From IMG/VR virus record IMGVR_UViG_3300012931_000011, positions 1 through 37,702 of that record: a stretch of DNA of 37,702 nucleotides; one strand, 5' to 3'. The stretch comes from a virus. The notes beneath the pieces were generated by a model. It was not told the DNA's origin and did not search any database. It saw only the letters and a program-made list of their open reading frames with translations. The translations under genes were made by a program, and so were the position numbers. Numbering within the stretch: the first letter of the stretch is position 1; each line of letters starts with the position of its first letter. This document shows positions 124 through 23,953 of the stretch, piece after piece.

Positions 124-362
124 ACATAGGGTGATGAAGAAACTGGTGTATAGGTAGGATATCCATATGAAGGAGTGACCCACGTTGGTAATGCACCAGC
201 ACCTTGTGAGGATAGAACTTGCCCAGCAGTTCCTACACTCGCCACAGACTGAAAAGCGCCAACTGAAGTAGCCCCTCCGCAAAGGACTGAAAAAGCTGTG
301 GCAGATTGGACGCCACTGCCGCCTTCTACTACTGGTTCTGGACTATTGCGTTTATAAGCCAT
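1..362 (-). CDS. Fibre-like protein, N-terminal part of a gene that wraps the window junction (continues 37579->37450; 163 aa in total)
   Basis: ATG at 362 preceded by taGGAGAGtata. Open to base 1 and in frame through the overlap: 362+130 = 492 nt. Carries GTAGQVLSSQGAGALPTW, a motif shared with the 32270-34842 paralogues. Confidence 0.7.
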   Translation of the reverse strand, partial: MAYKRNSPEPVVEGGSGVQSATAFSVLCGGATSVGAFQSVASVGTAGQVLSSQGAGALPTWVTPSYGYPTYTPVSSSPYVVAAGDQFLGVDTSSIAVTINLPNAPTTSRIFTIKDAAGSS

Positions 363-371
363 TATACTCTC

Positions 372-842
372 CTAGAAAATTTCATAATTTGTTCCATTAA
401 ACACTAATGAAACTGATTGATATGTTGAATTCATCGTATAGATAGCAGCACCATCTATGAGCGCTATCCCTGAAACGGTAGTGACTGTAATATTATTAGT
501 ATTAGCAGTCCCTGATCTATCTTTGATGACAAATAACCTATTTATACTTGTAGTATCTGGTAATTGGATAGTTATAGGTGCAGCTGTATTAACAGATAAG
601 TAATAATCTGTATCTAAGACTACATAAGGTGTTGTAGATACATTGGTATATTTGAACAACAAAGGTAGCGCTTCTATAGATATAGTAGCAGTACCTGAGT
701 CACCTACTGTTATTACAGAAGTACCGTCACCACTGATATTTATATTATTAGATAGAGGTGAAACTACATCACCTTGATCAGGTGTTAACGTATAAGTTGT
801 TGCTGGCGAAGTACCTGTAACAAAAGAACCTGCTTGTGACAT
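372..842 (-). CDS. Small fibre/receptor-binding-like protein, paralogue of the wrap-around gene
   Basis: SD taAGGAGataagATG. The C-terminus ...ITIQLPDTTSINRLFVIKDRSGTANTNNITVTT...LVFNGTNYEIF parallels ...VTINLPNAPTTSRIFTIKDAAGSSATHNITVTT...LIFNGTSYEIY of the neighbouring gene. Confidence 0.7.
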   Translation of the reverse strand: MSQAGSFVTGTSPATTYTLTPDQGDVVSPLSNNINISGDGTSVITVGDSGTATISIEALPLLFKYTNVSTTPYVVLDTDYYLSVNTAAPITIQLPDTTSINRLFVIKDRSGTANTNNITVTTVSGIALIDGAAIYTMNSTYQSVSLVFNGTNYEIF

Positions 843-851
843 CTTATCTCC

Positions 852-1208
852 TTATACTTGTGACGCATAAAGTATAGTCACATAAACAGAACCTAATGTA
901 GGTATAGTACTTACAGCTTTGACATAAACCCTATCGCCCTCAGGTTGTTCTAGCAGTCCTGATTGATCTGTTTTATTAGTACAATAGTCATACAAACAGT
1001 ACCCTTTAGCAGCTACAATATCATAATCTGCTACTCCATCGAAAGAAATAAGCAGATCAGCATCGGTTAAGTTCGTTACTTTTAATATGCGCACAGGATG
1101 GCCGAAAGATGAAGATACTGCAGAATAATAGAATGTACTTATAGAACCTGCACCTAATGATCTTAGTTCTTCAAATCGTACGCGCCCTGCGCTTGCTAAA
1201 TTGCCCAT
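852..1208 (-). CDS. Hypothetical virion-module protein, paralogue of 1224..1547
   Basis: SD aaAGGAGagtagtaATG. Shares the DLLIS(F/Y)DG..D.DIV block with the next gene. Confidence 0.65.
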   Translation of the reverse strand: MGNLASAGRVRFEELRSLGAGSISTFYYSAVSSSFGHPVRILKVTNLTDADLLISFDGVADYDIVAAKGYCLYDYCTNKTDQSGLLEQPEGDRVYVKAVSTIPTLGSVYVTILYASQV

Positions 1209-1223
1209 TACTACTCTCCTTTT

Positions 1224-1547
1224 TTATAGATAGTAAGCGATCAGATATATATACCCAGTATCGCTTGTAGCTTGCCCATATATGATGGTATTAGCTGGAA
1301 ATAAAGCGACTTTATTATTGGGTACAGCAGATGGTTGTGGATAGATAATATACTGTGTTTTAGTGAGGACAATATCATTATCTGTTGAACCATCATAACT
1401 GATCAGCAAATCTGCTTTAGATTCATTAACAATCCGAATCCAATTGATAGGGCGACTATATCCTAAGCCATTGAGGGCAGTATAAGCTGTCAACCCTGAA
1501 GAATCGACAGTTATCATAGGCATAGTTTTTATGCAATTACTTGGCAT
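1224..1547 (-). CDS. Hypothetical virion-module protein, paralogue of 852..1208
   Basis: I chose the internal ATG at 1547 (AAGGAGgaagATG) because the longer ORF overlaps the upstream gene. Contains the ADLLISYDGSTDNDIV block. Confidence 0.55.
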   Translation of the reverse strand: MPSNCIKTMPMITVDSSGLTAYTALNGLGYSRPINWIRIVNESKADLLISYDGSTDNDIVLTKTQYIIYPQPSAVPNNKVALFPANTIIYGQATSDTGYIYLIAYYL

Positions 1548-1731
1548 CTTCCTCCTTCTTTTCTTCAGGATGCATCCTTTGCAAATGTTCAGCTTGAAGT
1601 TCAGAGATCTTCTGAAGAATTTCATATGAGGCGTCTATAGCATTGCCCCATGTAGCACCCGTAGGGATATAAAATCTGAATGAGAAATCGCCTTTTTTAG
1701 ATTCTATTTCTAACGCTTGTCTTGCTTCCAT
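1537..1731 (-). CDS. Small acidic hypothetical protein
   Basis: ATG at 1731 preceded by aaAAGGAGcataca. 64 codons. Confidence 0.5.
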   Translation of the reverse strand: MEARQALEIESKKGDFSFRFYIPTGATWGNAIDASYEILQKISELQAEHLQRMHPEEKKEEDAK

Positions 1732-1807
1732 TGTATGCTCCTTTTTTATCATATGGACATGACTCTCTACAGTTGATTATAGAAAAGTCATATCCATAAA
1801 CCTATAA

Positions 1808-2704
1808 TTAAGCTGCGCAAGTTATATTAGTCCACGTAGTACCAGCATCAGTATTGATGTAAGCACGTGAAGTAGCGCCAGCAGGATCAGATCTTAAGAA
1901 TAAAGAACCTATTGGAGCGGTAACAGCAGTATTAGGATCACCAGCACCAGCTAGTACTAATAACCCACCAGGCAATGATAATCCACGACCTGCTGCAGTA
2001 ACAGAAAGGCCATTGGCAGCAACAGTATTGACACCAGTTGGCGTATTCAAGACTAACGTAGCACCTGCTGTGGTAGAACCTACATTAGTAGCATGCGCAG
2101 TAGCGCTTACCCCTAAATCAAGGTCACCTGTTCCTACATCTACGGTTACTGAAGTAGTTCCTGTATTGTTACCGATAACGACAGTTCTATTAGAAGAACT
2201 TACCCCTATATTAATTGTTGAAGTATCGCCAGCAGTTCCTATATCAATATAAGACCCTGAAGCATTAATAGTAACATCGCCAGTAGCTGATAGTGTTATA
2301 TCTGAAGCAGCAGTAACGGCAAAATCAACAGTAGAATCGAATGCTACATCGCCACCACTTTGGTCGAAGTTCCCTGAAACGTTAACATTACCTAATGCAG
2401 CTCCTGGAGCAGTTATATTACCAGCAAGCACAAGAACATCGCCAGTAGTTACCGTTAAATCACCAGGATTGATGGTTAATGAAGTAACAGAAGCTGAAGG
2501 TGCAGAGACCCAGGTCGTTAGCCCCCCGACTGTTTTAACGTCATAGTAAGCAGCATTAGCAGTTTGGTCTACCCAAATTTGTCCAGGCTCACAATGATCT
2601 GCTGTTGTTGGAGCCCTATTGGTAACAATTGGATCAGGAAACTGATTAGACTGTGGATTAGGATAACCATACAAAGAATTAGAACGCGTACGTTTAATAG
2701 GCAT
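1808..2704 (-). CDS. Tail fibre/spike-like protein (Gly/Thr/Ala/Val-rich repetitive beta-structure)
   Basis: SD aAAGGAGagtagtatATG. Low-complexity G/T/A/V composition typical of fibres. N-terminal ...APTTADHCEPGQIWVDQ... resembles the N-terminus of 34844..36190 (RDPDQYD..IGDIWIN). Confidence 0.7.
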   Translation of the reverse strand: MPIKRTRSNSLYGYPNPQSNQFPDPIVTNRAPTTADHCEPGQIWVDQTANAAYYDVKTVGGLTTWVSAPSASVTSLTINPGDLTVTTGDVLVLAGNITAPGAALGNVNVSGNFDQSGGDVAFDSTVDFAVTAASDITLSATGDVTINASGSYIDIGTAGDTSTINIGVSSSNRTVVIGNNTGTTSVTVDVGTGDLDLGVSATAHATNVGSTTAGATLVLNTPTGVNTVAANGLSVTAAGRGLSLPGGLLVLAGAGDPNTAVTAPIGSLFLRSDPAGATSRAYINTDAGTTWTNITCAA

Positions 2705-2786
2705 ATACTACTCTCCTTTAAAATTGCTTTACATTACTCTCTCATCAGCATTCTAGAACTTATAATAATTTATATACTATAAAAGC

Positions 2787-2814
2787 TTGCATTTTGTACT
2801 AGTACTAGTATACT
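2787..2814 (+). promoter_or_regulatory. Sigma70-like promoter (TTGCAT-16 nt-TATACT) with a perfect 14-bp palindrome TACTAGTACTAGTA (2797-2810) in the spacer
   Basis: Read directly upstream of the plus-strand RHH gene. The palindrome equals its own reverse complement. Confidence 0.5.
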
Positions 2815-2832
2815 TTTCATAGGTGATAAATA

Positions 2833-3018
2833 ATGGAAAATAAAAAACGCTATCAAATAGCATTCAATGTAAACTATAATTTACGGGAAGAAATAAAAAA
2901 ATTAGCTGCAAGACGTAATATCAGCATGAATTTATGGATTCTAAGAGCTATATATGAACGGATAAATTCAGAAACTAAGTTCGATAAGGATGGGAAAGAC
3001 AAAAATGCAGGAAAATAA
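2833..3018 (+). CDS. Ribbon-helix-helix (Arc/CopG/MetJ-like) DNA-binding protein
   Basis: KRYQIAFNV (beta strand), then LREEIKKLAARRNIS and MNLWILRAIYERI (two helices), which is the classic RHH layout. SD aGGTGAtaaataATG. Opposite strand to the flanking late genes. Confidence 0.7.
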   Translation: MENKKRYQIAFNVNYNLREEIKKLAARRNISMNLWILRAIYERINSETKFDKDGKDKNAGK

Positions 3019-3232
3019 TTATAATAAATATACAAAAATACTTTGTGTATTAGGAAAAATAATAGCACTGGCAATAGGCTTTCTATTATTTATCCCCGTA
3101 GCGTTGGTAGCCTTATGTATGATATTTGGCATAGCAATGTACGCTATACCATTAGCAATAATTTTTGGCTGCCCTACTTACGCATTTATTTTTGCGCTTA
3201 AACATTTATATCCAAAAAAAACTTCTCTCTAA
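3005..3232 (+). CDS. Small two-TM hydrophobic membrane protein
   Basis: Two hydrophobic stretches, IIALAIGFLLFIPVALVALCMIFGIAMYAIPLAIIFG and PTYAFIFAL. Start uncertain (ATG 2990 or 3005). Overlaps the end of the RHH gene. Confidence 0.55.
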   Translation: MQENNYNKYTKILCVLGKIIALAIGFLLFIPVALVALCMIFGIAMYAIPLAIIFGCPTYAFIFALKHLYPKKTSL

Positions 3233-4470
3233 AGCAAATGCAAAGCTAAGCCTGCTGCACTTTTCGCCAACTGCCCTGGACCACCAATTAAACTTCCAGC
3301 AATTGCTTGCAATGCAGTAGTTAATCTAGGTTGTTCTTGAGGAACAGGTTTAGATAAATCTTTTTTAAACTTTTTAGAAATTGCTTCTAATTTTTTATCT
3401 ATCTTATCATCAATCTGTGTGTTCAAATCATCTGGAGGAACGCCTTTGTTTTCTTTGATAACTTCTTTCATAGCATCATTATAGGCTAAATGAGCACGTG
3501 ATATATATTTTAGATTCGCTATGACACGTGATCTACCGGAATTAGATTGGCTTAATGATGGAATTGTTTTTAAAAAGTTTTCTATTTCCATATTAGATAT
3601 ACGAGATCCAAACACTGATTTTGCATCTCTCATGAAATTATAAGCTATTTTTTGGAATTCTTGAGATTCTGGATTCATTAAAGATGGAATATCTAACCCC
3701 GATCTATTAAGAAATTCTACATATCCTGGGGTATCTAATTTACCTGTTTCTTGCAAAGATTCCATTTCATCAAGATCATGTAAATTCTGTCTAGCAGCTT
3801 GAGCTTTTTGATATATCTCTTCTCTAAGTTTTCTAGTCTCATTGAGAGCTGCAGTTTTTTCTGCCTGAGCTAATTGACGTTCTTTTTGATTTATTTTTAT
3901 ACGTTCTGATGGGCTTATTCTAGATTCTTGTAATGCTTGAGAAATTCTATTACCTAAATTTTCAGCAACTGGCAATTCACGCTTTAACGTTGCTTGCTGA
4001 GGTTGTGCTTGCAATTGTTGAACTGGTTGCTGCTCTTGAGGAATATTAGCCAAGAACCCCAATCCTGGTTGCGCTTGTGCTCCTTGCAATTGCATCAACT
4101 TGTCAAAAGCAGAAGGTTGAGCAGCTTGCTGAAATGGTTGTGCTGGCAACTGTTCAGGCATAAGATTACTTAAAGTGCCTAAATCTTCAGACGCAGGTTC
4201 TTGCCCTGGTTGTTGATAGTTAGCCATAAAAGCAAGTTGTGCTTTTTCTGGTAATGATGATATTAGATTACCCAATCCTGGATATATCTGTTCATAAACA
4301 TCAGCAAGACGTTTCCGTTCTCCAGCTTGATATTCTTCCATTTTTCTAGATTGGATATCTTGCATTTTTTGTTGAGTTAACATACTCAACGCATCTTGTA
4401 TTGGTCTAGCTAAACCTTGACCTAATGCTGAACCTAAACTTGCTGCTGATGATCCTATTGGTGTGAACAT
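3229..4470 (-). CDS. Gln-rich coiled-coil virion protein (possible internal/ejection protein)
   Basis: 413-aa ORF with SD ataAGGATaaaattATG. Q/E/K-rich, in the position where T7-like podoviruses carry internal virion proteins. Confidence 0.55.
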   Translation of the reverse strand: MFTPIGSSAASLGSALGQGLARPIQDALSMLTQQKMQDIQSRKMEEYQAGERKRLADVYEQIYPGLGNLISSLPEKAQLAFMANYQQPGQEPASEDLGTLSNLMPEQLPAQPFQQAAQPSAFDKLMQLQGAQAQPGLGFLANIPQEQQPVQQLQAQPQQATLKRELPVAENLGNRISQALQESRISPSERIKINQKERQLAQAEKTAALNETRKLREEIYQKAQAARQNLHDLDEMESLQETGKLDTPGYVEFLNRSGLDIPSLMNPESQEFQKIAYNFMRDAKSVFGSRISNMEIENFLKTIPSLSQSNSGRSRVIANLKYISRAHLAYNDAMKEVIKENKGVPPDDLNTQIDDKIDKKLEAISKKFKKDLSKPVPQEQPRLTTALQAIAGSLIGGPGQLAKSAAGLALHLL

Positions 4471-4480
4471 AATTTTATCC

Positions 4481-5029
4481 TTATCGCTTTTGTTGATATG
4501 GTGCTGATGCCATCATTTTTAAAATTGAACCTATTGAAGGGGCTATAGCGCTCATACCGCCAGTAAGTCCAGCACCCAACGCATTCATACCAACAGAAGA
4601 AAGCGCAGGCAATATTTGTTGTAATAATCCTTCTTGACCTTGTGTGGCATAACTTTCTAATTGTGGAGTAAGACCTAAACCAAGCATATTAAGCATTTGA
4701 TTTCTATTTTGCATACCATATTGGCTTTGTAGAGCTGCTAATCCACCTTCTAAGTTAGCCCCAGCTTGCCCTAGTTCAGTTTTCAATGCCCCTGAACTCA
4801 TAGCATTATTCCCTAATGACTGGAACCGTTCCATGATGCTAGGTAACGTTTGTTGTTGGAACTGTGTGCGGGCTTGATTAGCAATAGGTTCAAACCCAGC
4901 ATAAGGATTCTGCATCCCTTGCATACCCATATTCATTAATGAAGATAAAGTATTCTGTTGCTGCGGAACAAATCTATTAACTTGTCCTACGCCGGCAGGT
5001 TGTCCTAAAAAGAATGAAGACCAATCCAT
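4481..5029 (-). CDS. Gly/Gln/Met-rich virion protein (possible internal protein)
   Basis: SD ttAGGAGAGtactATG. Low-complexity G/Q/M/N composition. Confidence 0.55.
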   Translation of the reverse strand: MDWSSFFLGQPAGVGQVNRFVPQQQNTLSSLMNMGMQGMQNPYAGFEPIANQARTQFQQQTLPSIMERFQSLGNNAMSSGALKTELGQAGANLEGGLAALQSQYGMQNRNQMLNMLGLGLTPQLESYATQGQEGLLQQILPALSSVGMNALGAGLTGGMSAIAPSIGSILKMMASAPYQQKR

Positions 5030-5038
5030 AGTACTCTC

Positions 5039-5566
5039 CTAATTTTTCAAAAATTCTAATACTACAATGGTCGTATCAAACGTAAGACCACTAGCATTGT
5101 TAATATTAATATACGTATCATCTACATAGAGAGAAATATTATTAGCACCAGAAGATGAAGCATAATTTAAAGGATAGTACACATGAGTTGTCGTATTATT
5201 AGCTACCCCAAAACAATGGACGAAACTTAGACTATCATTTATATCCAATCCATGAGCATACGTTGTCAACCCAGCACCTAATGCACCTACATTATATACT
5301 TTTCTAAAACACGCACGAAGATCATCGTAGGACGACGAATTTACATTGAACCATGATTGACCTGTGACGAACTCTTCCTGCAAGTAGAAAGCAGATTCTT
5401 TCGTATTAAGCACAGTTGAGATTAAGTTAACATTCTGATATAAACGCACAAATAATTCTTTGAATTCTTGACTATTAACATCAGTCTCATAAACATGCTG
5501 GATTTCCCAGATGTTAGTCGTAGGAACATAAGAGCCTGTATTTTTTTGGGTATCTGGATATGGCAT
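5039..5566 (-). CDS. Hypothetical structural protein
   Basis: I chose the ATG at 5566, just after the stop of the upstream gene (5568-5570). The longer ORF would overlap that gene by 83 nt. Confidence 0.55.
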   Translation of the reverse strand: MPYPDTQKNTGSYVPTTNIWEIQHVYETDVNSQEFKELFVRLYQNVNLISTVLNTKESAFYLQEEFVTGQSWFNVNSSSYDDLRACFRKVYNVGALGAGLTTYAHGLDINDSLSFVHCFGVANNTTTHVYYPLNYASSSGANNISLYVDDTYININNASGLTFDTTIVVLEFLKN

Positions 5567-5567
5567 A

Positions 5568-7748
5568 TTAGTAGATCCTATATGAAGTTGGTTGAGCGTG
5601 GATACACATAGCATGTAATTGGAAGCCACTTTCCCGGATATTCGTATCAAGCATCTGAGTATCAGACATCTTTAGTTGGAACTGTACTATGTTGCCTTCA
5701 GCTTGAAAATAAACAGGGTGCCACAAACGTGATGCGTTAGCTTCAAATGGAATAGCAGCATAAGAAAACGTATCTAATGTAGAGGTCCCTAATGTTGATG
5801 AAGTTATCAAAGGATCAGTTGATGTAGAGTCAAAGAAGTTAACATCTATTTGGCCATAGCCTGTTTTGTCTACCAGAAAATCTATTTTAGGGATGTAGAC
5901 GTTACGTGCCTGCTGTGCATAAAAGTTATATTCTTTAGTTTTTATAGTGATATTAGCGACACGGCTGATGAGGCCGCCACCTGTATAAGTCCCTGTTAGA
6001 TCGGGGATAGTACAAGTAAAGGTATCAGCATCAATAACTCCAGCAACTTGGAATATCGTATTGTTTATAGTGCCTGTGATCCCTAAGACTCCTTCAATAT
6101 AAATGAAATCTTTTTGTAGTAAGTTATGGTTCTTAGCTGTAATCGTTGCGGTAGTACCAGCAACTACAATATCAGTTATTTGTAGTACAGATGCATTAGT
6201 TTGTACATCAGAATCAAAGACAAACGTATATCCTTGCTGGTTCCCTGCTACTACTTGCCTGAATTTAGCTTGTATTTCACCTGAGTCCCACGTTATATCA
6301 TCGTCCCACGTTATGGTAGTACTGTCCCAGGTCACTCCTGTAGGCGGCTGATAATAGCCAAAACAGGTAATAGAATCATCAAAAAAGGCCCATGTATTAT
6401 TTTTATAGTTATATGCAAGTATTCGATTAGGGTACACAGAATAATCATTAATAGGTATTTTAACGAGGGACCAATAGACCATCTCGGTATAAAAGTCTCT
6501 TATACCATAAACACGGTTAACACCATGATCGACATTATGGATATCGAATACGGTTGTAGGAATATTCTGATCGATACGTTCTACGTTGGAGCCATTACAA
6601 GCCATGATACCGACATTACCTATGCCAAGACATACTTGGTCAAATGGAATAATAGAATGAGTAGATTCAGCACCTAGTTCAGTATTCAATTTAAGCCATG
6701 TAAATGGATATGCTTGGTTGCCTGTATATGCTAGTTCCCAGGTAGATCGTTCAAAATATACTATTAATCTATCTTTAACGAATTCAGCTGTGATAATAGC
6801 TTCTGTCGTAGCAGCATCCATATAGTTGCCTTTACCAGGCGTACTATACCAAGAATCAATGGCTACTGGTGACCCAAATTGGCAATATCGTGCTCTGTTA
6901 GGATAATTTTTTTGCGCCGCTATAGAAGCACCTTCCCAGGTATTAAGCGCAATAAGTCTGTTCTTAAATACGATAAGTAACCGTGCACAATTGAGATAGG
7001 AAGATGGAACAGAATCGAGAGGAGGCCTGAAATTGTCCCATTTATATACACCAGCATTAAGGACATATTGTCTCATGTAATTAGTTTCAGATTCATTGAA
7101 ATTTGTTACAAAAAAGATCCTATCTGATGGATCATTTCCTGACCATGTATCGCCCCAAAAGAACTGATAATCAGTTCCTTTCCAGGTTGATGCACCTACT
7201 GTTACTTCATCGCTTAAATTTACCCAGCCGTTATTATATTGATATGCATGAATAGTATCGAATCCAATAAGAAACTCATCATTAATAGCAGCTTGATCAA
7301 AAGATAGAAGGCCCATCACAGGAAGCGAAGGATAGAAATATATTGCAGTAAGAGCATCAGCACCAGTTATGGTAAGTGCTAAAGTGCCAGTATCATAGGT
7401 AGCAGTTGCCGCCCCTGTAGAAAGCAACGTTATTGTGCTACCAACAGGTGTTATAGTATTAACAGTAAATAGTTGATCTGCTACTGAAAAAGATTGGCCA
7501 ATAGCGATAGCAAGGCCAGTGCCGCCAGTAAAAGCACCAGTATTGTCAGTATCATCTAAATAAATCCTTAATCGTGATAATAAAGACGAATTAGAAAAGA
7601 ACGTAGATCCTGGTCTTTTTCTGATACGACCCCTAAAGCAATAGGCATTATCGAGTTCTTCAAAAGCTGTATCAGGAATAAGCCAAGGTTTATAGTTAGT
7701 CCGTTGGCCACTTTCTTGATCATATGGTGCTATAAAGAACTTATCCAT
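5568..7748 (-). CDS. Large tail/nozzle-like structural protein (726 aa)
   Basis: Largest ORF in the genome. It follows a 199-aa ORF, similar to the tubular A/B order of T7-like podoviruses. Assignment is by size and position only. Confidence 0.6.
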   Translation of the reverse strand: MDKFFIAPYDQESGQRTNYKPWLIPDTAFEELDNAYCFRGRIRKRPGSTFFSNSSLLSRLRIYLDDTDNTGAFTGGTGLAIAIGQSFSVADQLFTVNTITPVGSTITLLSTGAATATYDTGTLALTITGADALTAIYFYPSLPVMGLLSFDQAAINDEFLIGFDTIHAYQYNNGWVNLSDEVTVGASTWKGTDYQFFWGDTWSGNDPSDRIFFVTNFNESETNYMRQYVLNAGVYKWDNFRPPLDSVPSSYLNCARLLIVFKNRLIALNTWEGASIAAQKNYPNRARYCQFGSPVAIDSWYSTPGKGNYMDAATTEAIITAEFVKDRLIVYFERSTWELAYTGNQAYPFTWLKLNTELGAESTHSIIPFDQVCLGIGNVGIMACNGSNVERIDQNIPTTVFDIHNVDHGVNRVYGIRDFYTEMVYWSLVKIPINDYSVYPNRILAYNYKNNTWAFFDDSITCFGYYQPPTGVTWDSTTITWDDDITWDSGEIQAKFRQVVAGNQQGYTFVFDSDVQTNASVLQITDIVVAGTTATITAKNHNLLQKDFIYIEGVLGITGTINNTIFQVAGVIDADTFTCTIPDLTGTYTGGGLISRVANITIKTKEYNFYAQQARNVYIPKIDFLVDKTGYGQIDVNFFDSTSTDPLITSSTLGTSTLDTFSYAAIPFEANASRLWHPVYFQAEGNIVQFQLKMSDTQMLDTNIRESGFQLHAMCIHAQPTSYRIY

Positions 7749-7749
7749 A

Positions 7750-8349
7750 TCAATATCCTATAGCTAAGTAAGCAAAATTCATTGACCCTGCAGCACCATT
7801 GACAGAAGCAAAAACTCTAAAAGTATGATTATCTACAAGATCTACAAGACGAACTGAAGTATTAAGATAACCAATGCTTACATCATAGGGCGTAAGCAAA
7901 ACATTTAATAACCCATTTGGAGGATATGGAAGAGGTAGAGTGACTGAGGCATAACCATTTTTTGTCGCAATACCCCATTTTAACATGATTCCCGACGGTA
8001 GCCAGGTCCATCCATCTGATAATCCTGTTACTGGATGCGTGGTGCTTATAGTAGATGCTGTAAACGGTATAGTTTTAGCTGAAGGTGTTCCTCCAGAATG
8101 GACATATACTTCATTTACTCCTGAAAGGAGTTTACTAAAAATATAGTTTTCACCAGCTGCATAGGTAGGAAAAGCAGCAAGCGCTTGCATAGTAACTTGT
8201 TTATGCTTGCCTTGAGTAGCACCACCACCAAGGTCATAATCTTGATGGTCAACAGAAAAAGCAATATCTATAGTGTTAAAATTACCAGCTATAGGAGCCC
8301 TTGATACGTTAAGTGATTGCCCTGAAATTGGTACAACATTTAAAGCCAT
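7750..8349 (-). CDS. Hypothetical tail structural protein (199 aa)
   Basis: SD ttAGGAGattataATG. Its stop lies 1 nt before the next start. Confidence 0.6.
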   Translation of the reverse strand: MALNVVPISGQSLNVSRAPIAGNFNTIDIAFSVDHQDYDLGGGATQGKHKQVTMQALAAFPTYAAGENYIFSKLLSGVNEVYVHSGGTPSAKTIPFTASTISTTHPVTGLSDGWTWLPSGIMLKWGIATKNGYASVTLPLPYPPNGLLNVLLTPYDVSIGYLNTSVRLVDLVDNHTFRVFASVNGAAGSMNFAYLAIGY

Positions 8350-8358
8350 TATAATCTC

Positions 8359-9366
8359 CTAATAAGGCCATCCTACTGGGCCCCAACCGGTCCAATAGTT
8401 ATAGCTTTTACCTTGGGTATATATAGTAACTGTACGTTCTTCTGCTTGTTGTTCTATGGTAGATCTTAGCAATAGATATTCTTGTTCATTATATGACGGC
8501 ATAATCATATTTATACTGTCATAATCAAGTCTATCTTCAAAAATCTTTTTAGAAGCACCATAGGCTATATATTCCCAGGCTCTATTGAGAAAAGGATCAT
8601 CAGTATCATTCAAAAGTTCTGTAGGGATAATATCAGCCTCGACCTGAATTGGATAAGCTTTATCAGGTACTGGTCTAATAGTGAATTTATCATCAAAATA
8701 AAGCATCGCTAACGGCTTACTTGGCTGATATGCTATGTTTTCTGCCCAAATTACTGCTTGTACTTGCGTAATACTAGGAAATGTAACAGTAAATGCGCCA
8801 GAAACATAGTCTATGGTACCATATACCGGTGTTGCATCATATGGTAACCCTAAATAACCAGTCGTATTATATTGTGGATAGTCAATAAGGGTCATAGCTG
8901 TACCATTAGCATCATTGCATGAAATAACGACATTGTTTTGCAGCATAGGTTTTGCTGCGATATTACCGGTGAATGGTCCTACAGTGCCATCGCCACGAAG
9001 TTGGGTATCAGCTACGGTATTTGTTTGCGGATAGTACCCATAAAAAACATCTCTATGCTGTGTATAAAAGCCCTGAATACCCGCAAAATAAACAGGGACA
9101 TGTACAGCAAGATATTTATTTTTAAAATTATATAAAGGACTCGTTGTATCTGTCGTAGTAGTCTCATAAACATCGATATACGGTTGCGTATAGAATGTAA
9201 ATGTAGTTCTCAATGAAAAAAGTCTTAATTGATCAGGTAAATTATACAATAAAAATGTATTTATATATTTATCTATATCTGTAGTACTCAATTGAGACTC
9301 TGATGGATTCCTTGTTATCCGGCGTATCTTTGTTCTAATATCGCCAAGATTAGAAGTAGTAGGCAT
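8359..9366 (-). CDS. Hypothetical head/tail structural protein (335 aa)
   Basis: SD gtAAGGAtgaagcactATG. Tightly packed in the late operon. Confidence 0.6.
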   Translation of the reverse strand: MPTTSNLGDIRTKIRRITRNPSESQLSTTDIDKYINTFLLYNLPDQLRLFSLRTTFTFYTQPYIDVYETTTTDTTSPLYNFKNKYLAVHVPVYFAGIQGFYTQHRDVFYGYYPQTNTVADTQLRGDGTVGPFTGNIAAKPMLQNNVVISCNDANGTAMTLIDYPQYNTTGYLGLPYDATPVYGTIDYVSGAFTVTFPSITQVQAVIWAENIAYQPSKPLAMLYFDDKFTIRPVPDKAYPIQVEADIIPTELLNDTDDPFLNRAWEYIAYGASKKIFEDRLDYDSINMIMPSYNEQEYLLLRSTIEQQAEERTVTIYTQGKSYNYWTGWGPVGWPY

Positions 9367-9402
9367 AGTGCTTCATCCTTACTCTAAAAATTACTCTCTC
9401 TT

Positions 9403-9786
9403 TTAAGGATACGGCAATACGTTCTGTGTAGCCATAGTTAACATAGAAGAAACTTCGCCGACTGGTATAACTTGAGCAGGAGTCCCATAAGAACCAGGAC
9501 GGAATGAAGGGGTGTTGTAAGGATCAAAATAAGTTGTATCAATCGGCAAAGTAAATTGTGTACTAGAGATAACAGTTATAGGACCGCCTAAGCCGTTAGC
9601 TTGCATCATACCAAACCCATTAGGAATATATAATTGTACAATAAGCCCTGTCAAATAATTATGATCTGCTGGGGTAAGACCATCATAAGTAGTAGTTACC
9701 ACCATAGCAAGACTATTTGTTATAGACAGAATATTACGCATCGCAGGCTGAAATGTTGGATAAGGTGCTGCATAAAATTGAGCCAC
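9403..9786 (-). CDS. Hypothetical structural protein sharing the TPAQV(I/V)PVGE motif with 10319..11323
   Basis: GTG start preceded by aaAAGGAGAGGcc. YGTPAQVIPVGEVSS compares with FTPAQVVPVGENTA in the 334-aa protein. Confidence 0.6.
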   Translation of the reverse strand: MAQFYAAPYPTFQPAMRNILSITNSLAMVVTTTYDGLTPADHNYLTGLIVQLYIPNGFGMMQANGLGGPITVISSTQFTLPIDTTYFDPYNTPSFRPGSYGTPAQVIPVGEVSSMLTMATQNVLPYP

Positions 9787-9797
9787 GGCCTCTCCTT

Positions 9798-10274
9798 TTA
9801 AAGCGTTGACGTTACTTCAACAATATCAACAGGCGTCATCTCATCATCATCCATATATTCTAAACTATGGAATGCAAATCTATGAATCTTTTTCGCAACT
9901 TGCATGTTTCTTGTCTTCAAACGACCATCAGCATTGTTTGCAGCTTGTATTTCTTTTCCATATTCTTCTGGAAGTTGCTGATATTCTAAATAAAAACAAT
10001 TATTATTAAGATGCCTTGCTACACCATGTGGAATAGTATATCGTTCACCATCAAAAAATTCATAATTGATAAGATCATCGCCTTTATATGCTTTATAACT
10101 AAAAGCAACGCCACCAAGACAGCCATTACCAGAAGGATGTTCCAAATTCTTAAAGATCCCTGTGACCATTTCAGCGTCACGTTCTCTTCTTTTGGCAACT
10201 ATCTTATCAGCTTCTGCTTTACTTATTTTAGGCGCTTTTTTAGCTGTAATTCTTGATATTTCTGGACTCTTCAT
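9798..10274 (-). CDS. Hypothetical structural protein (158 aa, basic N-terminus)
   Basis: SD ttAGGAGAGagatATG directly after a GC hairpin. Confidence 0.6.
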   Translation of the reverse strand: MKSPEISRITAKKAPKISKAEADKIVAKRRERDAEMVTGIFKNLEHPSGNGCLGGVAFSYKAYKGDDLINYEFFDGERYTIPHGVARHLNNNCFYLEYQQLPEEYGKEIQAANNADGRLKTRNMQVAKKIHRFAFHSLEYMDDDEMTPVDIVEVTSTL

Positions 10275-10284
10275 ATCTCTCTCC

Positions 10285-10305
10285 TAAAAGGGGGCAAAGG
10301 CCCCC
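10285..10305 (-). terminator. GC-rich hairpin GGGGGC-cuuu-GCCCCC followed by UUUU (attenuator/terminator after the capsid gene pair)
   Basis: Read on the minus strand between 10319..11323 and 9798..10274. Confidence 0.5.
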
Positions 10306-10318
10306 TATATCTATCTTT

Positions 10319-11323
10319 TTACGAATTAAATGATTTACCAGCTACCCAGTAAATGACATCGCTAGCAGAACCAGCAGGACTTAAAGTACCAGCCATTAAT
10401 TGCATTCCAACGATACCGGTATTAACGGTAGCATCAGAAAGCAGGTTGGTATTATAGGTCAAAGCTGTTGCTGTATTCTCACCAACTGGAACCACTTGCG
10501 CAGGGGTAAATGGTGTATTAGTTGTGAGAGGGAACGCGAATGCAGACATTCCGGTAGTATCAATATTTACGGTAATGGTATTTGTTGCACCATTTGCATC
10601 AGCTTGGTTAACAGCAATAATAGTAGCTTCAACTTCATTTAATGCAGTCATACCATATGCAAGTGAAGTTACGGTAGGGATAATAAATCTTATCTTTTGT
10701 CCTACGGTAAAACTATGAGTTACTGATAAGGTAACAATTGCATTAGTAGCTTGAGAAATCTTAGTAATATAACGATTACGTGGATAATAATAAGGGTTAT
10801 AAGGAATACGTCTCCAATAACCAGCTCCTGGAGTTGCAGCAGCAATAGCAGCCATATTCGCTAATGTAAACGAAGTATTAGCTACAATAGTACCAATGGT
10901 AAAATCGATACCGCCAAGCTGTAAAGCACCAGCAGGATTATAAAGACGTACAATATCACCAGTATTAAGACCAGCAGTCGAACCTGTAGTTACGACTGGA
11001 GGAACTGCACCAGAAATACCAGTAGTAGCAACAGCAGCTGAAGGAACGTTTACGGTAGTATCAACAAGATAGAACCCGCTCTGTGCAGCTATCTGTCCTA
11101 CTGTCAAAGCATTAGTAGATGAAGTCTTAGTATAAATAGTACCTTGACCTTGCGTCATACCACGTTGCCAGTAGAATTCTACGCCAGTATTAGCGCCTGA
11201 TGCATATGATGTCGTTAAATTATAGACACGCATCCAATCTACACTAGAAGGCAAATTGATAATCTCTGGAGAACCAGTAGAAGTGAAATAACCTTGGTTA
11301 GTTCCTGAAAAAACAACAGACAT
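10319..11323 (-). CDS. Abundant-type virion protein immediately after the capsid gene (possible decoration or second major structural protein)
   Basis: SD gtAAGGAGatactATG abutting the capsid stop. Followed by a hairpin terminator. Has internal repeated G..(V/I)R(L/F)..P modules. Confidence 0.65.
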   Translation of the reverse strand: MSVVFSGTNQGYFTSTGSPEIINLPSSVDWMRVYNLTTSYASGANTGVEFYWQRGMTQGQGTIYTKTSSTNALTVGQIAAQSGFYLVDTTVNVPSAAVATTGISGAVPPVVTTGSTAGLNTGDIVRLYNPAGALQLGGIDFTIGTIVANTSFTLANMAAIAAATPGAGYWRRIPYNPYYYPRNRYITKISQATNAIVTLSVTHSFTVGQKIRFIIPTVTSLAYGMTALNEVEATIIAVNQADANGATNTITVNIDTTGMSAFAFPLTTNTPFTPAQVVPVGENTATALTYNTNLLSDATVNTGIVGMQLMAGTLSPAGSASDVIYWVAGKSFNS

Positions 11324-11332
11324 AGTATCTCC

Positions 11333-11968
11333 TTACGATAGGGTTGCCCTGAGATTGGTGATCCATAAATCATTCAATATTCGAGGGACCTCTGCGAATA
11401 CATATCCTAAGGTAACGTTTTGGAACAATGGGTCACTGTACACAGCAGGACGATAGAGGAACCGTGCTGAATAATTGTCCTGTTCAACGCACGCCAATGA
11501 TTCCATCCCCTGAACAATGATTGAATAGACATCATTGCCAAGTGCAGATGCGTTTGGCGTGATTGCGCCTTGTGAAGACAGCATGAAACGGCAGTTATTG
11601 ACCGATCCCCACTCTGATCTCAAGACATTGTTTTCAGATGGATAATTCCATTTTGAAACAAAACCATTTATATTATTCAATTCTTTTGATAATCTTGTGT
11701 GCCCTAATGCCAAATAGGAATCCCTTACTGGGCCTGTGCCGAAGCGGTCCTCGCCTTCAATATTATCCAATATCATGAATGCATCGTTTGTAAGCAATGC
11801 AGATGTAACTTCATCAATGTCAGATAAAGATAAATTTGTTGGCGTATCGCCGTTTACTCCGCCAACACAGTTAACCATACCAGCTGTTGCTGTGAGCATA
11901 TCACGAGTGAGCTGATCTTCTGTCATACGCAATGATAGCCCTAAAAGTTCGGCTGTTTCATTGAGAAC
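11333..11968 (-). CDS. Capsid exon 4 (C-terminal 211 aa)
   Basis: In frame with ORF 11333..11971. The apparent ATG at 11969-11971 is the intron 3 terminus ...AGAAUG. Confidence 0.75.
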   Translation of the reverse strand, partial: VLNETAELLGLSLRMTEDQLTRDMLTATAGMVNCVGGVNGDTPTNLSLSDIDEVTSALLTNDAFMILDNIEGEDRFGTGPVRDSYLALGHTRLSKELNNINGFVSKWNYPSENNVLRSEWGSVNNCRFMLSSQGAITPNASALGNDVYSIIVQGMESLACVEQDNYSARFLYRPAVYSDPLFQNVTLGYVFAEVPRILNDLWITNLRATLS

Positions 11969-14364
11969 CATTCTGTTACTTTATGACCTATCTCTAGGCG
12001 GGGAAACTTCTTCGAATCTCCCTCACTACCTTATCGTGTAGTGTTCAGACTATCGCATACCATTTCTGGTTCTTTTCGTTTAGTCGTTCAGCCTGGACTA
12101 GCAATTCTGCTTCGTGTATAATTATATAGTATAATTGTTTAAATTTAATGAGGATTTCATGGGAAAAACACGAAGACAATATTATAAAAGATCTAAAGAT
12201 TATATTCCGCAACAATACAAATCTACTGATTTGGCTTATATGGCAGGAATTGTTGATGGAGAAGGATGTTTTTATATTGGCAAAGTTCCCAAAAAAGCTG
12301 GAGATGGATATGTTTCCGAACATTATCGAGGTCTTTTGAAAATTGATAATACCAATCAAAGATTGATAAATTGGATTGATAATGTTTTTAGCGGTACTGC
12401 ATCTGCTCGCTGCAGAACAACTTCCAGCAAAAAATTTGAGCGCGATATTTTTACATGGAATTCTACTGGAGATCGACTGCTTGATATATGCGAACAGCTG
12501 TTGCCATACCTTGTTATAAAAAAAGAACAATGCGAAATCATGATTAAGTTTAGAAAAACATACAATGCATCGCTGGGAAGTCATGTGCTTCCTATGGGCG
12601 CACTTGAATCTAGACAGCAGTGTTTGGAAGAAATTCGTAAACTTAATTCGCGATGGCATTTACATCCTTTGAAAAATATTTAAATCCTAGTCCTTGGCCC
12701 TTGTTACCGGTTAGCTAATTGCTACTTCGGACTTCAAGTCAATTAGAAAAGATTTATAGACCCCATACTTTTTAGGGTCTTGGTTCTGTAGTGTACATTA
12801 TTCTGTTACTTTTATGACCTATTTCTAGGCGGGGACTTTCTCTACTTATCCCTCTCTAAGTTATCCCTAGAGTTCAGAGCACCGCATCCATGGGATCATT
12901 ATTATCTACATAAGGTATGTCAATTCCGCCGTTAGCCATTTTCTCTTTAATTTTTTTCGAACAAATATCGCAAAATTTTATAACAGTTTCTTGCTTACTG
13001 GATCTTGCAAATATAACTTTTAAAAGACATTTACTACATAGATAATTTTTTTTATTTCCCATAGTCTTCTCGCTTGCTACGTTCAGGCTGATTAGGAAAT
13101 GGGAAATCATCTTCATAAATCCAATGGGTTATTTCTTTTTCTATACCCCAATATTCGTCAATATTTACAAATAAATTAGATTTATTAGAGAATTTGTCTA
13201 CTCTGTAATCACCATGAAATAACTCATTGCTTTGTGAACAAAGAATTAATGGTTTGCTGATTTCAGGCATAACACTTTTTATATTATTCCATTTCATAAT
13301 CTTGCCCCTTGTCGCCGGTTAGTTGAATACCACTTCGGTTTCCAAGTCTATCAGAGAAGATTTAAAGCAGGCTACAATATTATTTTTAACCTGCTGGTTG
13401 ATAGCAACATACAATCCATAAAATGACATTGTTGCATCGATATCAACACGTGTTAAAGGTGTGGCTGGTGGTGTTGCCCCAGAAGGACCAAGAGGTACTG
13501 GTGCTGTAGGCAATCTATCATACCTAGCCATACGCAATGTACGACCACCTTTAGAAGGTAATCTTTTAGAGATAGCTCCGAGCTTGTAAATCAAATTAGG
13601 TGTTCTTACCGATAGTAAGATATCATCCATAGTTTGCTGGACCATTCTATTACTTTATGACCTGTTGCCAGGCGGGTAGTCATTTCTGCTACCTCTTATA
13701 GTTTCCTATAAGATTGGATCATCGCATACCTTCTCAGGTCCTCGAGGCTTGATCTCTGCGCCTACTTTATTAGCATTAAGCTCTCGCATCTTTTGATACG
13801 CTTGCTCACGATAATTTAACTCGTTTTCAGTTAACCTAATATGCCTTTGGCCAATATCTTTATAATTACCTTTTTCACAAAATTCCAACAAATGTAATGC
13901 TCTTTCTTTTTTATTGTGTAAATAGGGCAATATCCCATGCAAAAAAGTTAAAAGATCTTTTTTATTTGTTATACGCCATTCATATAAAGGTAAACTATTA
14001 GGTCTAGATTTACGAGTGCCACTGATTATTATGCTGCCCAATCCGGTTTCTTTTTTGATGTAATTGATAGAACCATTATTAATCATAGTTATCTTTACGC
14101 ACGGTAAATAATCATATCTATATTTTCTAAAATATTTACCAATCATAAAACATCCGTCAGAATCCATAATTGCTGCCGCATAAATCCAATGCGTTTGGCT
14201 CTGGTTATCTTGCATATCATATCCTTTATTATATTCAACACTTCCTGTGCGAGTATAGCAGAACGAACGTGATATGTTTAGACTTTCCATGTAATCACTC
14301 AAGGTTTAACGCGCCCTATCTCTCAAAAAGGCGCCGGGAGCGTAGTTGTAGTAGTTATTGGCAT
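11333..14364 (-). CDS. Major capsid protein (HK97-fold, N4-gp56-like family by recall), four exons: 14364-14329, 13642-13389, 12795-12774, 11968-11333
   Basis: Exon lengths sum to 36+254+22+636 = 948 nt, giving 315 aa plus stop with no frame break. Spliced product: MPITTTTTLPAP|VQQTMDD...YVAINQQV|TLQNQDP|VLNETAELLG...SDPLFQNVTLGYVFAEVPRILNDLW.... SD aAAGGAGtttagttATG at 14364. Confidence 0.8.
11969..12773 (-). mobile_element. Group I-like intron 3 (805 nt) of the capsid gene
   Basis: P1: exon AGACCCU pairs with intron GGGGUCU, with a G.U at the splice site. 3' end GGUCAUAAAGUAACAGAAUG. Candidate P7: GACUA (12085-12081, inside CUGAACGACUAAA, R-like) with UAGUC (12052-12048, inside GCGAUAGUC, S-like). 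A 7-bp stem (12095-12101 / 12687-12693) encloses the endonuclease gene. Confidence 0.75.
12159..12683 (+). CDS. LAGLIDADG homing endonuclease (single-motif, 174 aa), antisense to its host intron
   Basis: Motif LAYMAGIVDGEGCFYIG. SD aatGAGGAtttcATG. Two TATAAT boxes upstream at about 12115-12133. The overlapping minus-strand ORF 12045..12659 is low-complexity shadow. Confidence 0.85.
   Translation: MGKTRRQYYKRSKDYIPQQYKSTDLAYMAGIVDGEGCFYIGKVPKKAGDGYVSEHYRGLLKIDNTNQRLINWIDNVFSGTASARCRTTSSKKFERDIFTWNSTGDRLLDICEQLLPYLVIKKEQCEIMIKFRKTYNASLGSHVLPMGALESRQQCLEEIRKLNSRWHLHPLKNI
12774..12795 (-). CDS. Capsid exon 3: 22-nt micro-exon u|aca cua cag aac caa gac ccu, encoding (V)TLQNQDP
   Basis: Bounded by the intron 2 terminal G (12796) and the intron 3 5' splice-site U (12774). 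Needed to keep exons 2 and 4 in frame. Confidence 0.7.
12874..13062 (-). CDS. Small CxxC...CxxC zinc-ribbon-like ORF inside intron 2
   Basis: MGNKKNYLCSKC...KFCDICSKK. Start chosen at the internal ATG 13062. Its C-terminal codons overlap the conserved 3' block of the intron. Confidence 0.35.
   Translation of the reverse strand: MGNKKNYLCSKCLLKVIFARSSKQETVIKFCDICSKKIKEKMANGGIDIPYVDNNDPMDAVL
13052..13297 (-). CDS. DUF551-like small ORF inside intron 2
   Basis: MKWNNIKSVMPE...ITHWIYEDDFPFPNQPE resembles, by recall, the DUF551 pattern (W..v.d.lPe ... THWmplPepP). ATG directly follows the conserved 5' block of the intron. Confidence 0.45.
   Translation of the reverse strand: MKWNNIKSVMPEISKPLILCSQSNELFHGDYRVDKFSNKSNLFVNIDEYWGIEKEITHWIYEDDFPFPNQPERSKREDYGK
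13389..13642 (-). CDS. Capsid exon 2 (84 codons + 2 nt)
   Basis: Part of ORF 13319..13645. The ORF's leading ATG is the intron 1 terminus ...AGAAUG, and its tail ...KNNIVACFKSSLIDLETEVVFN is read-through into intron 2. Confidence 0.75.
13643..14328 (-). mobile_element. Group I-like intron 1 (686 nt) of the capsid gene
   Basis: P1: exon GCGCCU pairs with intron GGGCGC, with a G.U at the splice site. 3' end GGUCAUAAAGUAAUAGAAUG. Candidate P7: GAUCA (13754-13750) with UGAUC (13721-13717). The 3' block is homologous to introns 2 and 3. Confidence 0.7.
13706..14215 (-). CDS. LAGLIDADG homing endonuclease (single-motif, 169 aa), sense orientation in intron 1
   Basis: Motif WIYAAAIMDSDGCFMIGKY. 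ATG at 14215 preceded by aAAGGAtatgat. The C-terminal codons overlap the candidate ribozyme core. Confidence 0.8.
   Translation of the reverse strand: MQDNQSQTHWIYAAAIMDSDGCFMIGKYFRKYRYDYLPCVKITMINNGSINYIKKETGLGSIIISGTRKSRPNSLPLYEWRITNKKDLLTFLHGILPYLHNKKERALHLLEFCEKGNYKDIGQRHIRLTENELNYREQAYQKMRELNANKVGAEIKPRGPEKVCDDPIL
14329..14364 (-). CDS. Capsid exon 1 (MPITTTTTLPAP)
   Basis: Strong SD and ATG. The frame hits a stop 2 codons after the proposed splice site. Confidence 0.7.
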
Positions 14365-23355: not shown

Positions 23356-23428
23356 AAAACAATAGCTCAGCGGTTAGAGCATCAGCCTGTTAAGCTGAAG
23401 GTTATTGGTTCAAATCCAATTTGTTTTT
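23356..23428 (+). tRNA. trnN: tRNA-Asn (GUU) with an almost all-A/U acceptor stem
   Basis: Manual cloverleaf: AAAACAA / UA / GCUC-AGCGGUUA-GAGC / A / UCAGC-CUGUUAA-GCUGA / AGGUU / AUUGG-UUCAAAU-CCAAU / UUGUUUU / U. No encoded CCA. Confidence 0.75.
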
Positions 23429-23662
23429 CAAGAATAGCCTTTATAACGCTAGTCTTTTGAAATCTATCAAGATTAAAGTTTGAAGATTTAATTTTTAAGA
23501 TTTAAAAGCGGCAAGTTAATAAGTAGCAAGAGAGCAAGGAGATGCCGATATTATCATCGGAATGACCTAGAAAAGTTTTTTTGTATATTTATATGGTCTT
23601 TCTAGGGTTCCTGTATAGGCAATGCTATCGCGAATAAGATAATAATTGGTGTTACAATTTAC

Positions 23663-23878: not shown

Positions 23879-23953
23879 TGGCTCCCCGGCTAGGATTCGA
23901 ACCTAGGACCACTCGCTTAACAGGCGATCGCTCTACCACTGAGCTACCGGGGA
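23879..23953 (-). tRNA. trnN: tRNA-Asn (GUU), canonical bacterial type with encoded CCA
   Basis: Manual cloverleaf: UCCCCGG / UA / GCUC-AGUGGUA-GAGC / G / AUCGC-CUGUUAA-GCGAG / UGGUC / CUAGG-UUCGAAU-CCUAG / CCGGGGA / G / CCA. Confidence 0.9.

Follow-up and report, generated by a model that had tools for sequence, protein, structure and literature searches.

Homing endonuclease genes that run antisense to the group I intron harboring them are rare but known: they are documented in eukaryotic ribosomal DNA (rDNA), and a single earlier phage case was found. In the nuclear rDNA group I introns Dir.S956-2 and Dsq.L2066 (I-DsqI), His-Cys box endonuclease genes lie antisense to the intron and are expressed from an internal promoter, and a spatial and temporal separation of transcripts was proposed as a safeguard against antisense interference (Lian et al. 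2022, PMC9548176). The phage case is that of mycobacteriophage LittleE: its capsid gene 13 is interrupted by an intron for which splicing takes place in vivo and which harbors gp14 (Pope et al. 2013, PMC3706429). Here, we describe the third intron of the major capsid gene in IMG/VR virus record IMGVR_UViG_3300012931_000011 (positions 1 to 37,702; this whole stretch of 37,702 nucleotides (nt) is referred to as the window), which carries a LAGLIDADG homing endonuclease gene on the opposite strand. An earlier note on this DNA had mentioned the eukaryotic precedents, which the literature bears out, and had held antisense genes to be untypical of phage introns, which is right with regard to their rarity but passes over the capsid intron gene gp14 of LittleE. 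Judging from the loci compared below, the opposite orientation is an invariant rule for this endonuclease family in capsid introns. What is new is that the gene avoids TTA, CTA, and TCA and thereby keeps the pre-mRNA strand open across the antisense endonuclease.

LittleE resembles the present locus in that a group I-type intron splits a phage major capsid gene and that gp14, a 177-amino-acid (aa) I-CreI-like LAGLIDADG gene, lies on the bottom strand, against the capsid gene (PMC3706429; JF937101). It differs in being a single genome for which promoter and orientation were left unanalyzed (PMC3706429), in carrying the endonuclease 3' of P7' (P9 region) instead of in P6, and in its capsid type and intron lineage, while gp14 shares only the motif with the endonuclease described here. 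A search for the open antisense frame discussed below is uninformative in its GC-rich genome (2, 7, and 11 stops in the three frames). The rDNA introns likewise carry the endonuclease on the strand opposite the intron, but belong to a eukaryotic setting (RNA polymerase I versus RNA polymerase II, polyadenylation, spliceosomal introns), encode a His-Cys box enzyme, and have the insertion in P9; moreover, their host gene specifies rRNA, for which no translation issue arises, and a mirrored open reading frame (ORF) was not reported for them.

Orientation also distinguishes the locus from the td intron of phage T4, in which I-TevI, a GIY-YIG enzyme, is encoded in sense. The I-TevI gene is looped out of P6 of the td intron, and it has phage late promoters, while its translation is repressed in the pre-mRNA. 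The td intron is, like the one described here, a phage group I intron, and T4 intron endonucleases possess regulatory elements of their own, including autorepression by I-TevI, while antisense orientation comes up only with regard to segD, a free-standing gene (Edgell, Gibb and Belfort 2010, PMC2988022). Gene orientation goes unmentioned in a review of bacterial group I introns from 2014 as well as in two publications from 2025, an intron database paper and a survey of phage introns. In our judgement, the family-wide invariance, the conserved putative promoter sharing its −35 element with P6, and the mirror ORF set the present intron apart from these earlier cases.

The window covers most of the ~37.7-kb genome of an uncultured phage with 36–40 % GC, nearly all genes of which lie on the minus strand; recognizable phage proteins are a terminase, a portal protein, and an Erf-like protein. 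A near-DNA search among cultured phages gave no close DNA relative of the genome, and no close relative turned up in the bacterial genome collection searched. Anatomy, fold, enzyme family, orientation, selection, promoter-like and Shine–Dalgarno (SD) signals as well as the stop-free mirror frame were read from the sequence and its comparison with relatives. The capsid gene is laid out as follows:

14364 to 14329, minus strand: capsid exon 1
14328 to 13643, minus strand: capsid intron 1
13642 to 13389, minus strand: capsid exon 2
13388 to 12796, minus strand: capsid intron 2
12795 to 12774, minus strand: capsid exon 3, a 22-nt micro-exon (read from sequence)
12773 to 11969, minus strand: capsid intron 3, group I, 805 nt (5' splice site after U 12774; last intron base G 11969)
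11968 to 11333, minus strand: capsid exon 4

It is an N4-gp56-type major capsid gene, interrupted by three group I introns. The exon/intron map, which had already been drawn up in the earlier note, is right because the spliced 315-aa capsid protein matches TIGR04387 over model positions 1–319 of 324 (E = 1.8e-35) and because uninterrupted relatives exist, namely in 80 related viral contigs (identity up to 87 %). Removal of intron 3 restores the capsid reading frame. Capsid genes with such introns get fragmented by gene callers.

The antisense cassette within intron 3 comprises the following elements, the coordinates of the plus-strand ORF and of both TATAAT boxes and the SD being as previously claimed:

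12159 to 12683, plus strand: LAGLIDADG homing endonuclease gene, 174 aa, single motif (ATG at 12159, TAA at 12681–12683), antisense to intron 3 and located in the P6 loop
12094–12099 and 12117–12122, plus strand: candidate sigma70-like promoter (TGGACT, 17 nt, TATAAT; 10/12 match)
12130–12135, plus strand: second TATAAT
12150–12154, plus strand: SD sequence GAGGA, 4 nt before the endonuclease ATG (read from sequence)
12659 to 12045, minus strand: mirror ORF, 204 codons (AUG at 12659, preceded by AAGGA at 12669–12665; UGA at 12047–12045, just 3' of P7')

The endonuclease gene thus faces both the intron and the capsid exons on the minus strand. Among its homologs, capsid segments are found on the opposite strand in 41 of 44 loci (on both flanks in 34) and on the same strand in none; in two of the remaining loci, the homolog is same-strand in other contexts. 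Gene maps of three homologs (80 %, 63 %, and 59 % identical) show it as the only gene on its own strand, between capsid fragments. Homologs inspected in Streptomyces and Xylella phages are same-strand and free-standing and hence uninformative on intron orientation. Most endonuclease insertions occupy the intron 3 site, while those of loci L133 and L134 lie near capsid residue 63–69; of the about 490 related capsid loci in IMG/VR, roughly 39 have the intron element. Antisense transcription might, as the earlier note proposed, uncouple the endonuclease from the capsid in expression or disturb splicing. Since the antisense arrangement is evolutionarily stable, it must be compatible with capsid production. 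The invariant orientation in a large, diverse, and still selected family provides natural replicates for studies on the expression of a selfish gene that runs counter to an essential late transcript.

Two further loci are worth recording here. In L097 (3250–5300), the insertion site of intron 2, which is 22 nt upstream of the common one, houses a 63 %-identical homolog in antisense. In L137 (2390–3600), a GC-rich phage contig, a 34 %-identical homolog is antisense to its neighbors, beside a seemingly different capsid gene; antisense insertion may not be limited to capsid genes of the N4-gp56 type.

The mirror ORF is the codon-for-codon reverse complement of the endonuclease gene, situated on the pre-mRNA strand. 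Its frame is open over 182–228 codons in 21 of 22 relatives (0–3 stops), as compared to 7–21 stops in the other two frames, and it is open because the endonuclease avoids TTA, CTA, and TCA, TTA being the commonest Leu codon in this phage. The endonuclease gene contains one of these three codons versus 11.4 expected (P = 6e-6), the sense-oriented endonuclease gene of intron 1 contains 11 versus 12.4 expected. Across 32 homologs, TTA, CTA, and TCA account for 37 of 823 Leu and Ser codons (4.5 %), as compared to 347 of 1013 (34 %) in the neighboring capsid exon on these contigs (Fisher P = 3e-62, uncorrected for relatedness), with frequencies of 0.05 vs 0.27 for TTA, 0.01 vs 0.12 for CTA, and 0.03 vs 0.28 for TCA. 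A general avoidance of A-ending codons was considered as the cause and rejected, given that A-ending codons of seven other families are used equally (0.34 vs 0.34); furthermore, AT content is higher in the endonuclease genes than in the capsid exons despite the scarcity of these three codons. Sense-oriented intron endonucleases of the same intron family contain 6–21 in-register antisense stops. In the open-access literature, no report was found in which stop codons are avoided on the host-gene strand opposite an antisense endonuclease gene. The absence of TTA, CTA, and TCA constitutes a simple, testable mark by which further tolerated antisense cassettes could be sought.

The ends of the mirror ORF show constraints of their own. 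Its AUG and AAGGA are the complements of His and Pro-Leu codons in the conserved C-terminal H-x-H-P-L-K of the endonuclease. The Pro codon of HPLK is CCT in 24 of the 24 homologs with Pro at this position (CCT usage is 45 % overall), and TTA is tolerated only at the HPLK Leu, that is, upstream of the mirror AUG. The mirror ORF ends at the UGA of the invariant GUCUGAAC in 16 of 30 relatives and continues into exon 4, in frame, in another 8 of the 30. The idea that it continues the upstream exon was dropped, as the frames agree in only 11 of 20 cases and that of the exon meets a stop ~20 codons past the 5' splice site. The mirror strand has a C/G ratio of 1.30 (exon 4: 0.93). The mirror protein has no Pfam match, and its sequence cannot be conserved because the synonymous sites of the endonuclease are saturated; selection seems to act on the openness of the mirror frame alone.

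The endonuclease ORF contains LAYMAGIVDGEGCF, and its motif reads LAYMAGIVDGEG, with D33 and G36 invariant across the family. That it encodes a LAGLIDADG enzyme, as had been read from the motif, withstood a check by hidden Markov model and structure. Pfam PF00961 aligned to the single protein gives E = 4.7e-4 and 21.4 bits (gathering cut-off 23.1) and is matched by 14 of 18 family members at E ≤ 0.01, while a family profile searched against the PDB retrieves I-MsoI (7e-12), I-CvuI (7e-8), and I-CreI (2e-6) with the whole domain covered. An AlphaFold2 model (predicted local distance difference test score 80.9) has I-CreI/I-MsoI as top Foldseek matches (probability 1.00, template modeling scores 0.65/0.74). 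By profile and predicted fold, the plus-strand ORF is hence classified as an I-CreI/I-MsoI-type LAGLIDADG endonuclease. With I-CreI, I-MsoI, and I-CvuI it shares the one LAGLIDADG motif, the catalytic Asp, and the fold over the whole domain, but the identity is only 15–20 %, and it has an N-terminal extra of ~20 aa and a C-terminal LNSR-H-x-HPLK tail; the three known enzymes, moreover, are sense-encoded in algal organelle rRNA introns. By analogy to these, having one motif per chain, it probably acts as a homodimer on a pseudo-palindromic site of ~22 bp.

A large protein database holds 143 homologs, mostly of ~175 aa and more than 100 of them full length; those listed are 40–80 % identical, and many reside on 31–39-kb phage contigs. 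The ratio of non-synonymous to synonymous substitution rates (dN/dS) is 0.08–0.25 at saturated dS, which indicates that the gene is under purifying selection. As candidate cleavage target, intron-less capsid alleles contain the conserved ...CAAAACCAAGAYCCNGT.... At the spliced junction (12765–12790, minus strand), the ligated exons read CAGAACCAAGACCCT/GTTCTC (the slash marks the junction), and AGAAC/GTTCT inverted repeats surround the insertion site, which could be half-sites of the homodimeric enzyme; the GTTCT arm varies among intron-less alleles (GTtcTt).

The ribozyme that accommodates this gene was folded by hand and then checked by covariation in an alignment of 27 distinct ORF-deleted relatives, to which the counts in this part refer. 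The minimum free energy fold of the ORF-deleted intron was not used, as the pseudoknot cannot be represented in it. The elements are:

12779 to 12774 with 12764 to 12759, minus strand: P1, GACCCU (exon 3 end) with GGGGUC, U.G at the splice site
12752 to 12746 with 12077 to 12071, minus strand: P3, UCUUUUC with GAAAAGA, joining sequence on either side of the ORF
12738 to 12735 with 12703 to 12700, minus strand: P4 (inferred), CUUG with CAAG, enclosing a variable P5 region
12699 to 12696 and 12693 to 12687, minus strand: P6 5' strand, GGCC, AA, and GGACUAG, pairing with 12101 to 12090
12101 to 12095 and 12093 to 12090, minus strand: P6 3' strand, CUAGUCC, A, and GGCU, the plus-strand complement of which holds the −35-like TGGACT
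12085 to 12081 (GACUA), minus strand: J6/7 and P7 5' strand, R-like element UGAACGACUAAAC
12070 to 12059, minus strand: P8, covarying
12058 to 12043 (UAGUC at 12052 to 12048), minus strand: J8/7 and P7 3' strand, S-like element AUGCGAUAGUCUGAAC
12043 to 12089, minus strand: 3' half of the catalytic core, nearly invariant in the 27 relatives
12043 to 12024, minus strand: P9, covarying
12022 to 12001, minus strand: P9.1, covarying
11999 to 11986, minus strand: P9.2, covarying
within 11969 to 12043, minus strand: 3' tail of intron 3, AUAAAGUAACAGAAUG

Standard pairs occur in 94.2 % of cells, as compared to 36–48 % when the 3' partners are slid by 1–3 columns, and 36 of 50 pairs changed on both sides. 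For P3, which reaches across the ORF, this holds for 7/7 pairs with 98.9 % of cells paired. In P6, the loop of which measures 585 nt, 7 of 8 tested pairs covary (4 outer and 4 of the 7 inner ones were tested). The 7-bp stem that had been noticed around the ORF, GGACUAG (12693 to 12687) with CUAGUCC (12101 to 12095) in the minus-strand RNA, is thus real, covaries, and represents the inner part of P6. P7 pair 149–212 is seen as AU, UA, and GC, whereas the other five P7 pairs are nearly invariant, and the U.G pair of P1 is kept in 26 of 27 relatives. Both P4 strands are invariant in the alignment and thus show no covariation; their pairing was read by eye from an ORF-less relative (L142). The core motifs UGAACGACUAAA and AUGCGAUAGUCUGAAC resemble the classical R and S elements. 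The intron ends in ...AACAGAAUG with G as last nucleotide, and its 3' tail is common to all three capsid introns as well as to 15 viral contigs. Summed up, the comparison supports intron 3 as a group I intron, with covariation backing P3, P6, P7, P8, and P9–P9.2 including the P3/P7 pseudoknot that spans the ORF. Two pairings were discarded on the way: P7 at GGACUAG (12693 to 12687) was dropped, since the R-like UGAACGACUAAAC and the P3 partner GAAAAGA lie downstream of the ORF and the stem is P6, and P4 as AAUUG/CAAUU is not conserved in relatives, the invariant CUUG/CAAG being taken instead.

The expression signals of the endonuclease gene had been placed within the 3' ribozyme core; this does not hold for the −10 element and the SD, both of which are situated in the P6 loop. 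An overlap with a helix exists only for the −35-like hexamer, which is complementary to GUCCA in the P6 3' strand. That the gene has its own promoter and SD finds support in their conservation across relatives. Over 31 distinct upstream regions, the best −35/16–18/−10 match averages 9.4/12 (shuffles ~7.1), with 17 of 31 regions scoring at least 10/12 and 9 of 31 reaching 11/12. In close relatives, the promoter-like site always sits 3 nt past the complement of the R element and has a 17-nt spacer, while distant subgroups display TTTACA-17-TATAAT or TTGTCA-17-TATAAT at other offsets. AAGGA, GAGGA, or AGGAG precedes the endonuclease start codon in most relatives. There is no other plus-strand ORF in 1 to 12000 (in a list of ORFs of at least 90 aa), and no RNA polymerase was recognized among the phage proteins. 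As far as such signals allow, host polymerase most likely transcribes the endonuclease gene from its own promoter.

Just past the −10 element, a conserved block (12123–12140, plus strand) reads ATAGTATAAT here and ATAGTAATAC in relatives, and in the L117–L125 subgroup an inverted repeat, TTCGTTTA...TAAACGAA, brackets the −10 element and abuts the SD. Block and repeat could represent an operator, a second −10 element, or a leader hairpin. A CUUCGUG/CACGAAG hairpin around promoter and start (z −2.35) was set aside: it is seemingly not conserved, its complement being missing in L096 by eye. Elsewhere in the genome, comparable sigma70-like sites, two strong ones placed back to back, separate the leftward from the rightward gene block at 29964–30026 (minus strand TTTACA-16-TATAAT, 11/12; plus strand TTGACA-16-TAAGAT, 10/12), probably forming a divergent early control region.

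From this anatomy we infer how and when the promoter may be used, how cleavage and homing may proceed, and for what purpose the mirror ORF may be translated. We regard as fairly probable an overall reading in which intron 3 is a mobile group I intron with an autonomous antisense endonuclease cassette in P6, the mirror frame of which is kept for ribosome cover. Host RNA polymerase would transcribe the endonuclease gene independently of the capsid gene and, we suppose, probably earlier. When relatives with an intron-less capsid allele co-infect, the enzyme would cleave this allele close to where exons 3 and 4 join (Q-N-Q-D-P/V-L-N-E), and the intron would be copied into it during repair. The cassette would be a mere loop of the capsid pre-mRNA, around which P3 and P6 close, so that the ribozyme could splice itself out, and no ribosome would read the endonuclease frame on the ribozyme RNA. 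The endonuclease mRNA would never be part of the capsid pre-mRNA, and its synthesis would therefore be uncoupled from late capsid expression.

Owing to its reverse orientation, the insert would add ~0.55 kb of untranslated pyrimidine-rich RNA to the pre-mRNA. RNA of this kind, left uncovered where bacterial transcription and translation are coupled, is the type Rho acts on. Ribosomes might enter via the mirror SD and AUG and translate from where the P6 loop begins up to the UGA directly behind P7', and their cover could shield the late capsid transcript from Rho-dependent termination, decay, or pairing with endonuclease mRNA; the cost to the endonuclease gene would be that TTA, CTA, and TCA are never used. 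Taken by itself, the proposal that the mirror ORF is such a ribosome track, kept for cover of the antisense insert and not for a protein, is the role we favor for it, yet no more than tentative. Alternative roles are protection from RNases, the stripping of complementary endonuclease mRNA, or none at all. The codon signature suggests that the host-gene strand must stay translatable across the insert, and it ties intron biology to transcription–translation coupling and Rho polarity; a ribosome track, if true, would amount to a general rule for tolerating an antisense cassette in a bacterial or phage coding transcript.

Several observations weigh against this overall reading. Ribosomes on the mirror ORF would cross P6', P7, P3', and P8 and should delay folding. 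Rfam RF00028 has no match in the window at E ≤ 10, nor does the Rfam group I model match any of 15 loci with the intron's 3' end or the ORF-less relatives, which we judge to reflect a limit of the model for this intron lineage; a widespread phage intron lineage is missed by it. A scan of the plus strand past the endonuclease gene gave no convincing terminator, so the endonuclease mRNA could extend over sequence complementary to the 5' core and to exon 3; the complement of P1 with its U-rich tail was tried as terminator and discarded, folding no better than shuffles (z −0.2). The −35-like hexamer is also dictated in sequence by the P6 helix. Finally, L097, the only relative checked with a broken mirror ORF (7 stops, longest open stretch 45 aa), keeps its endonuclease, and long in-register antisense ORFs are often compositional artifacts (bioRxiv 10.1101/724807). 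The latter two points lend themselves to a different view, in which the endonuclease cassette is as described while the mirror frame is untranslated, a functionless by-product of the codon usage of the lineage. The lack of conservation of the mirror protein sequence at saturated endonuclease dS and its missing Pfam match speak in the same direction. We nevertheless consider a mere by-product rather unlikely: the bias is confined to the three stop-complement codons, with A-ending codons of other families used equally; the endonuclease genes exceed the capsid exons in AT; sense LAGLIDADG genes of the intron family, including that of intron 1, use codons normally; and TTA occurs only upstream of the mirror AUG, with CCT as the invariable Pro codon at the mirror SD.

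The enzyme might also serve mainly purposes other than homing by now, either as a splicing maturase in trans or as a weapon against co-infecting relatives. This would explain the strong purifying selection over saturated synonymous divergence and would agree with the share of related capsid loci that have the element (see above), and LAGLIDADG maturases are known, as is a phage intron endonuclease with a competitive role (PMC11620839). Yet Asp and Gly of the catalytic motif are invariant, as in an active nuclease, and the patchy spread with many intron-less alleles fits ongoing cycles of homing, which makes such a change of function improbable. Least credible, and very improbable indeed, is that the plus-strand ORF is silent or chance read-through, a decaying passenger without own promoter. 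The promoter-like site in the window, taken alone, does not exceed chance (26 sites vs 25 expected in 7 kb), which also counts against an autonomous cassette; however, more than 100 homologs have the ORF at full length, its dN/dS is low (see above), the −35/17/−10 arrangement and the SD are conserved, and no other plus-strand ORF of at least 90 aa lies upstream in 1 to 12000.

From the distribution of related introns, the capsid gene is a hot spot for this lineage. Sense ORFs are found in other introns of the lineage, namely in intron 1 here and in L090, L091, and L094. Intron 1 (14328 to 13643, minus strand) contains a sense LAGLIDADG ORF (13706–14302) that is 29 % identical to the antisense endonuclease and apparently runs through the 3' half of the core into P9, so that homologous endonucleases occur in both orientations in one genome. 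Intron 2 (minus strand) has the scaffold of intron 3 and two small sense ORFs, neither of which is recognizable as an endonuclease: a DUF551-like one in the P6 loop (13052–13297) and one with CxxC...CxxC motifs (12874–13116), apparently in a P8 loop closed by UAUGGGA/UCCCAUG. In L081–L095, the lineage is seen at several capsid sites, for example, before VQQTMDD, NIEGEDKF, and VLNE, and at least one further insertion, that of L089, apparently lies in a gene other than the capsid gene. A distant search with the 3' core among cultured phages returned one ORF-less relative, MW202674. There (L142; MW202674.1, about 2917–3152), an ORF-less intron of ~235 nt splits a "P22 coat protein" gene into two annotated coding sequences and escapes the Rfam group I model; the lineage seems invisible to standard annotation.

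The 22-nt exon 3 is flanked by two group I introns of one lineage. The 6 nt at its end are engaged in P1 of intron 3, and the 3' splice site of intron 2 has to make use of its first bases; skipping of exon 3 or an ordered splicing seems possible. Apart from the capsid gene, the genome carries two tRNA-Asn(GTT) genes ~450 bp apart (23356–23429, plus strand; 23879–23953, minus strand), which are very different in sequence and have 37 % and 60 % GC.

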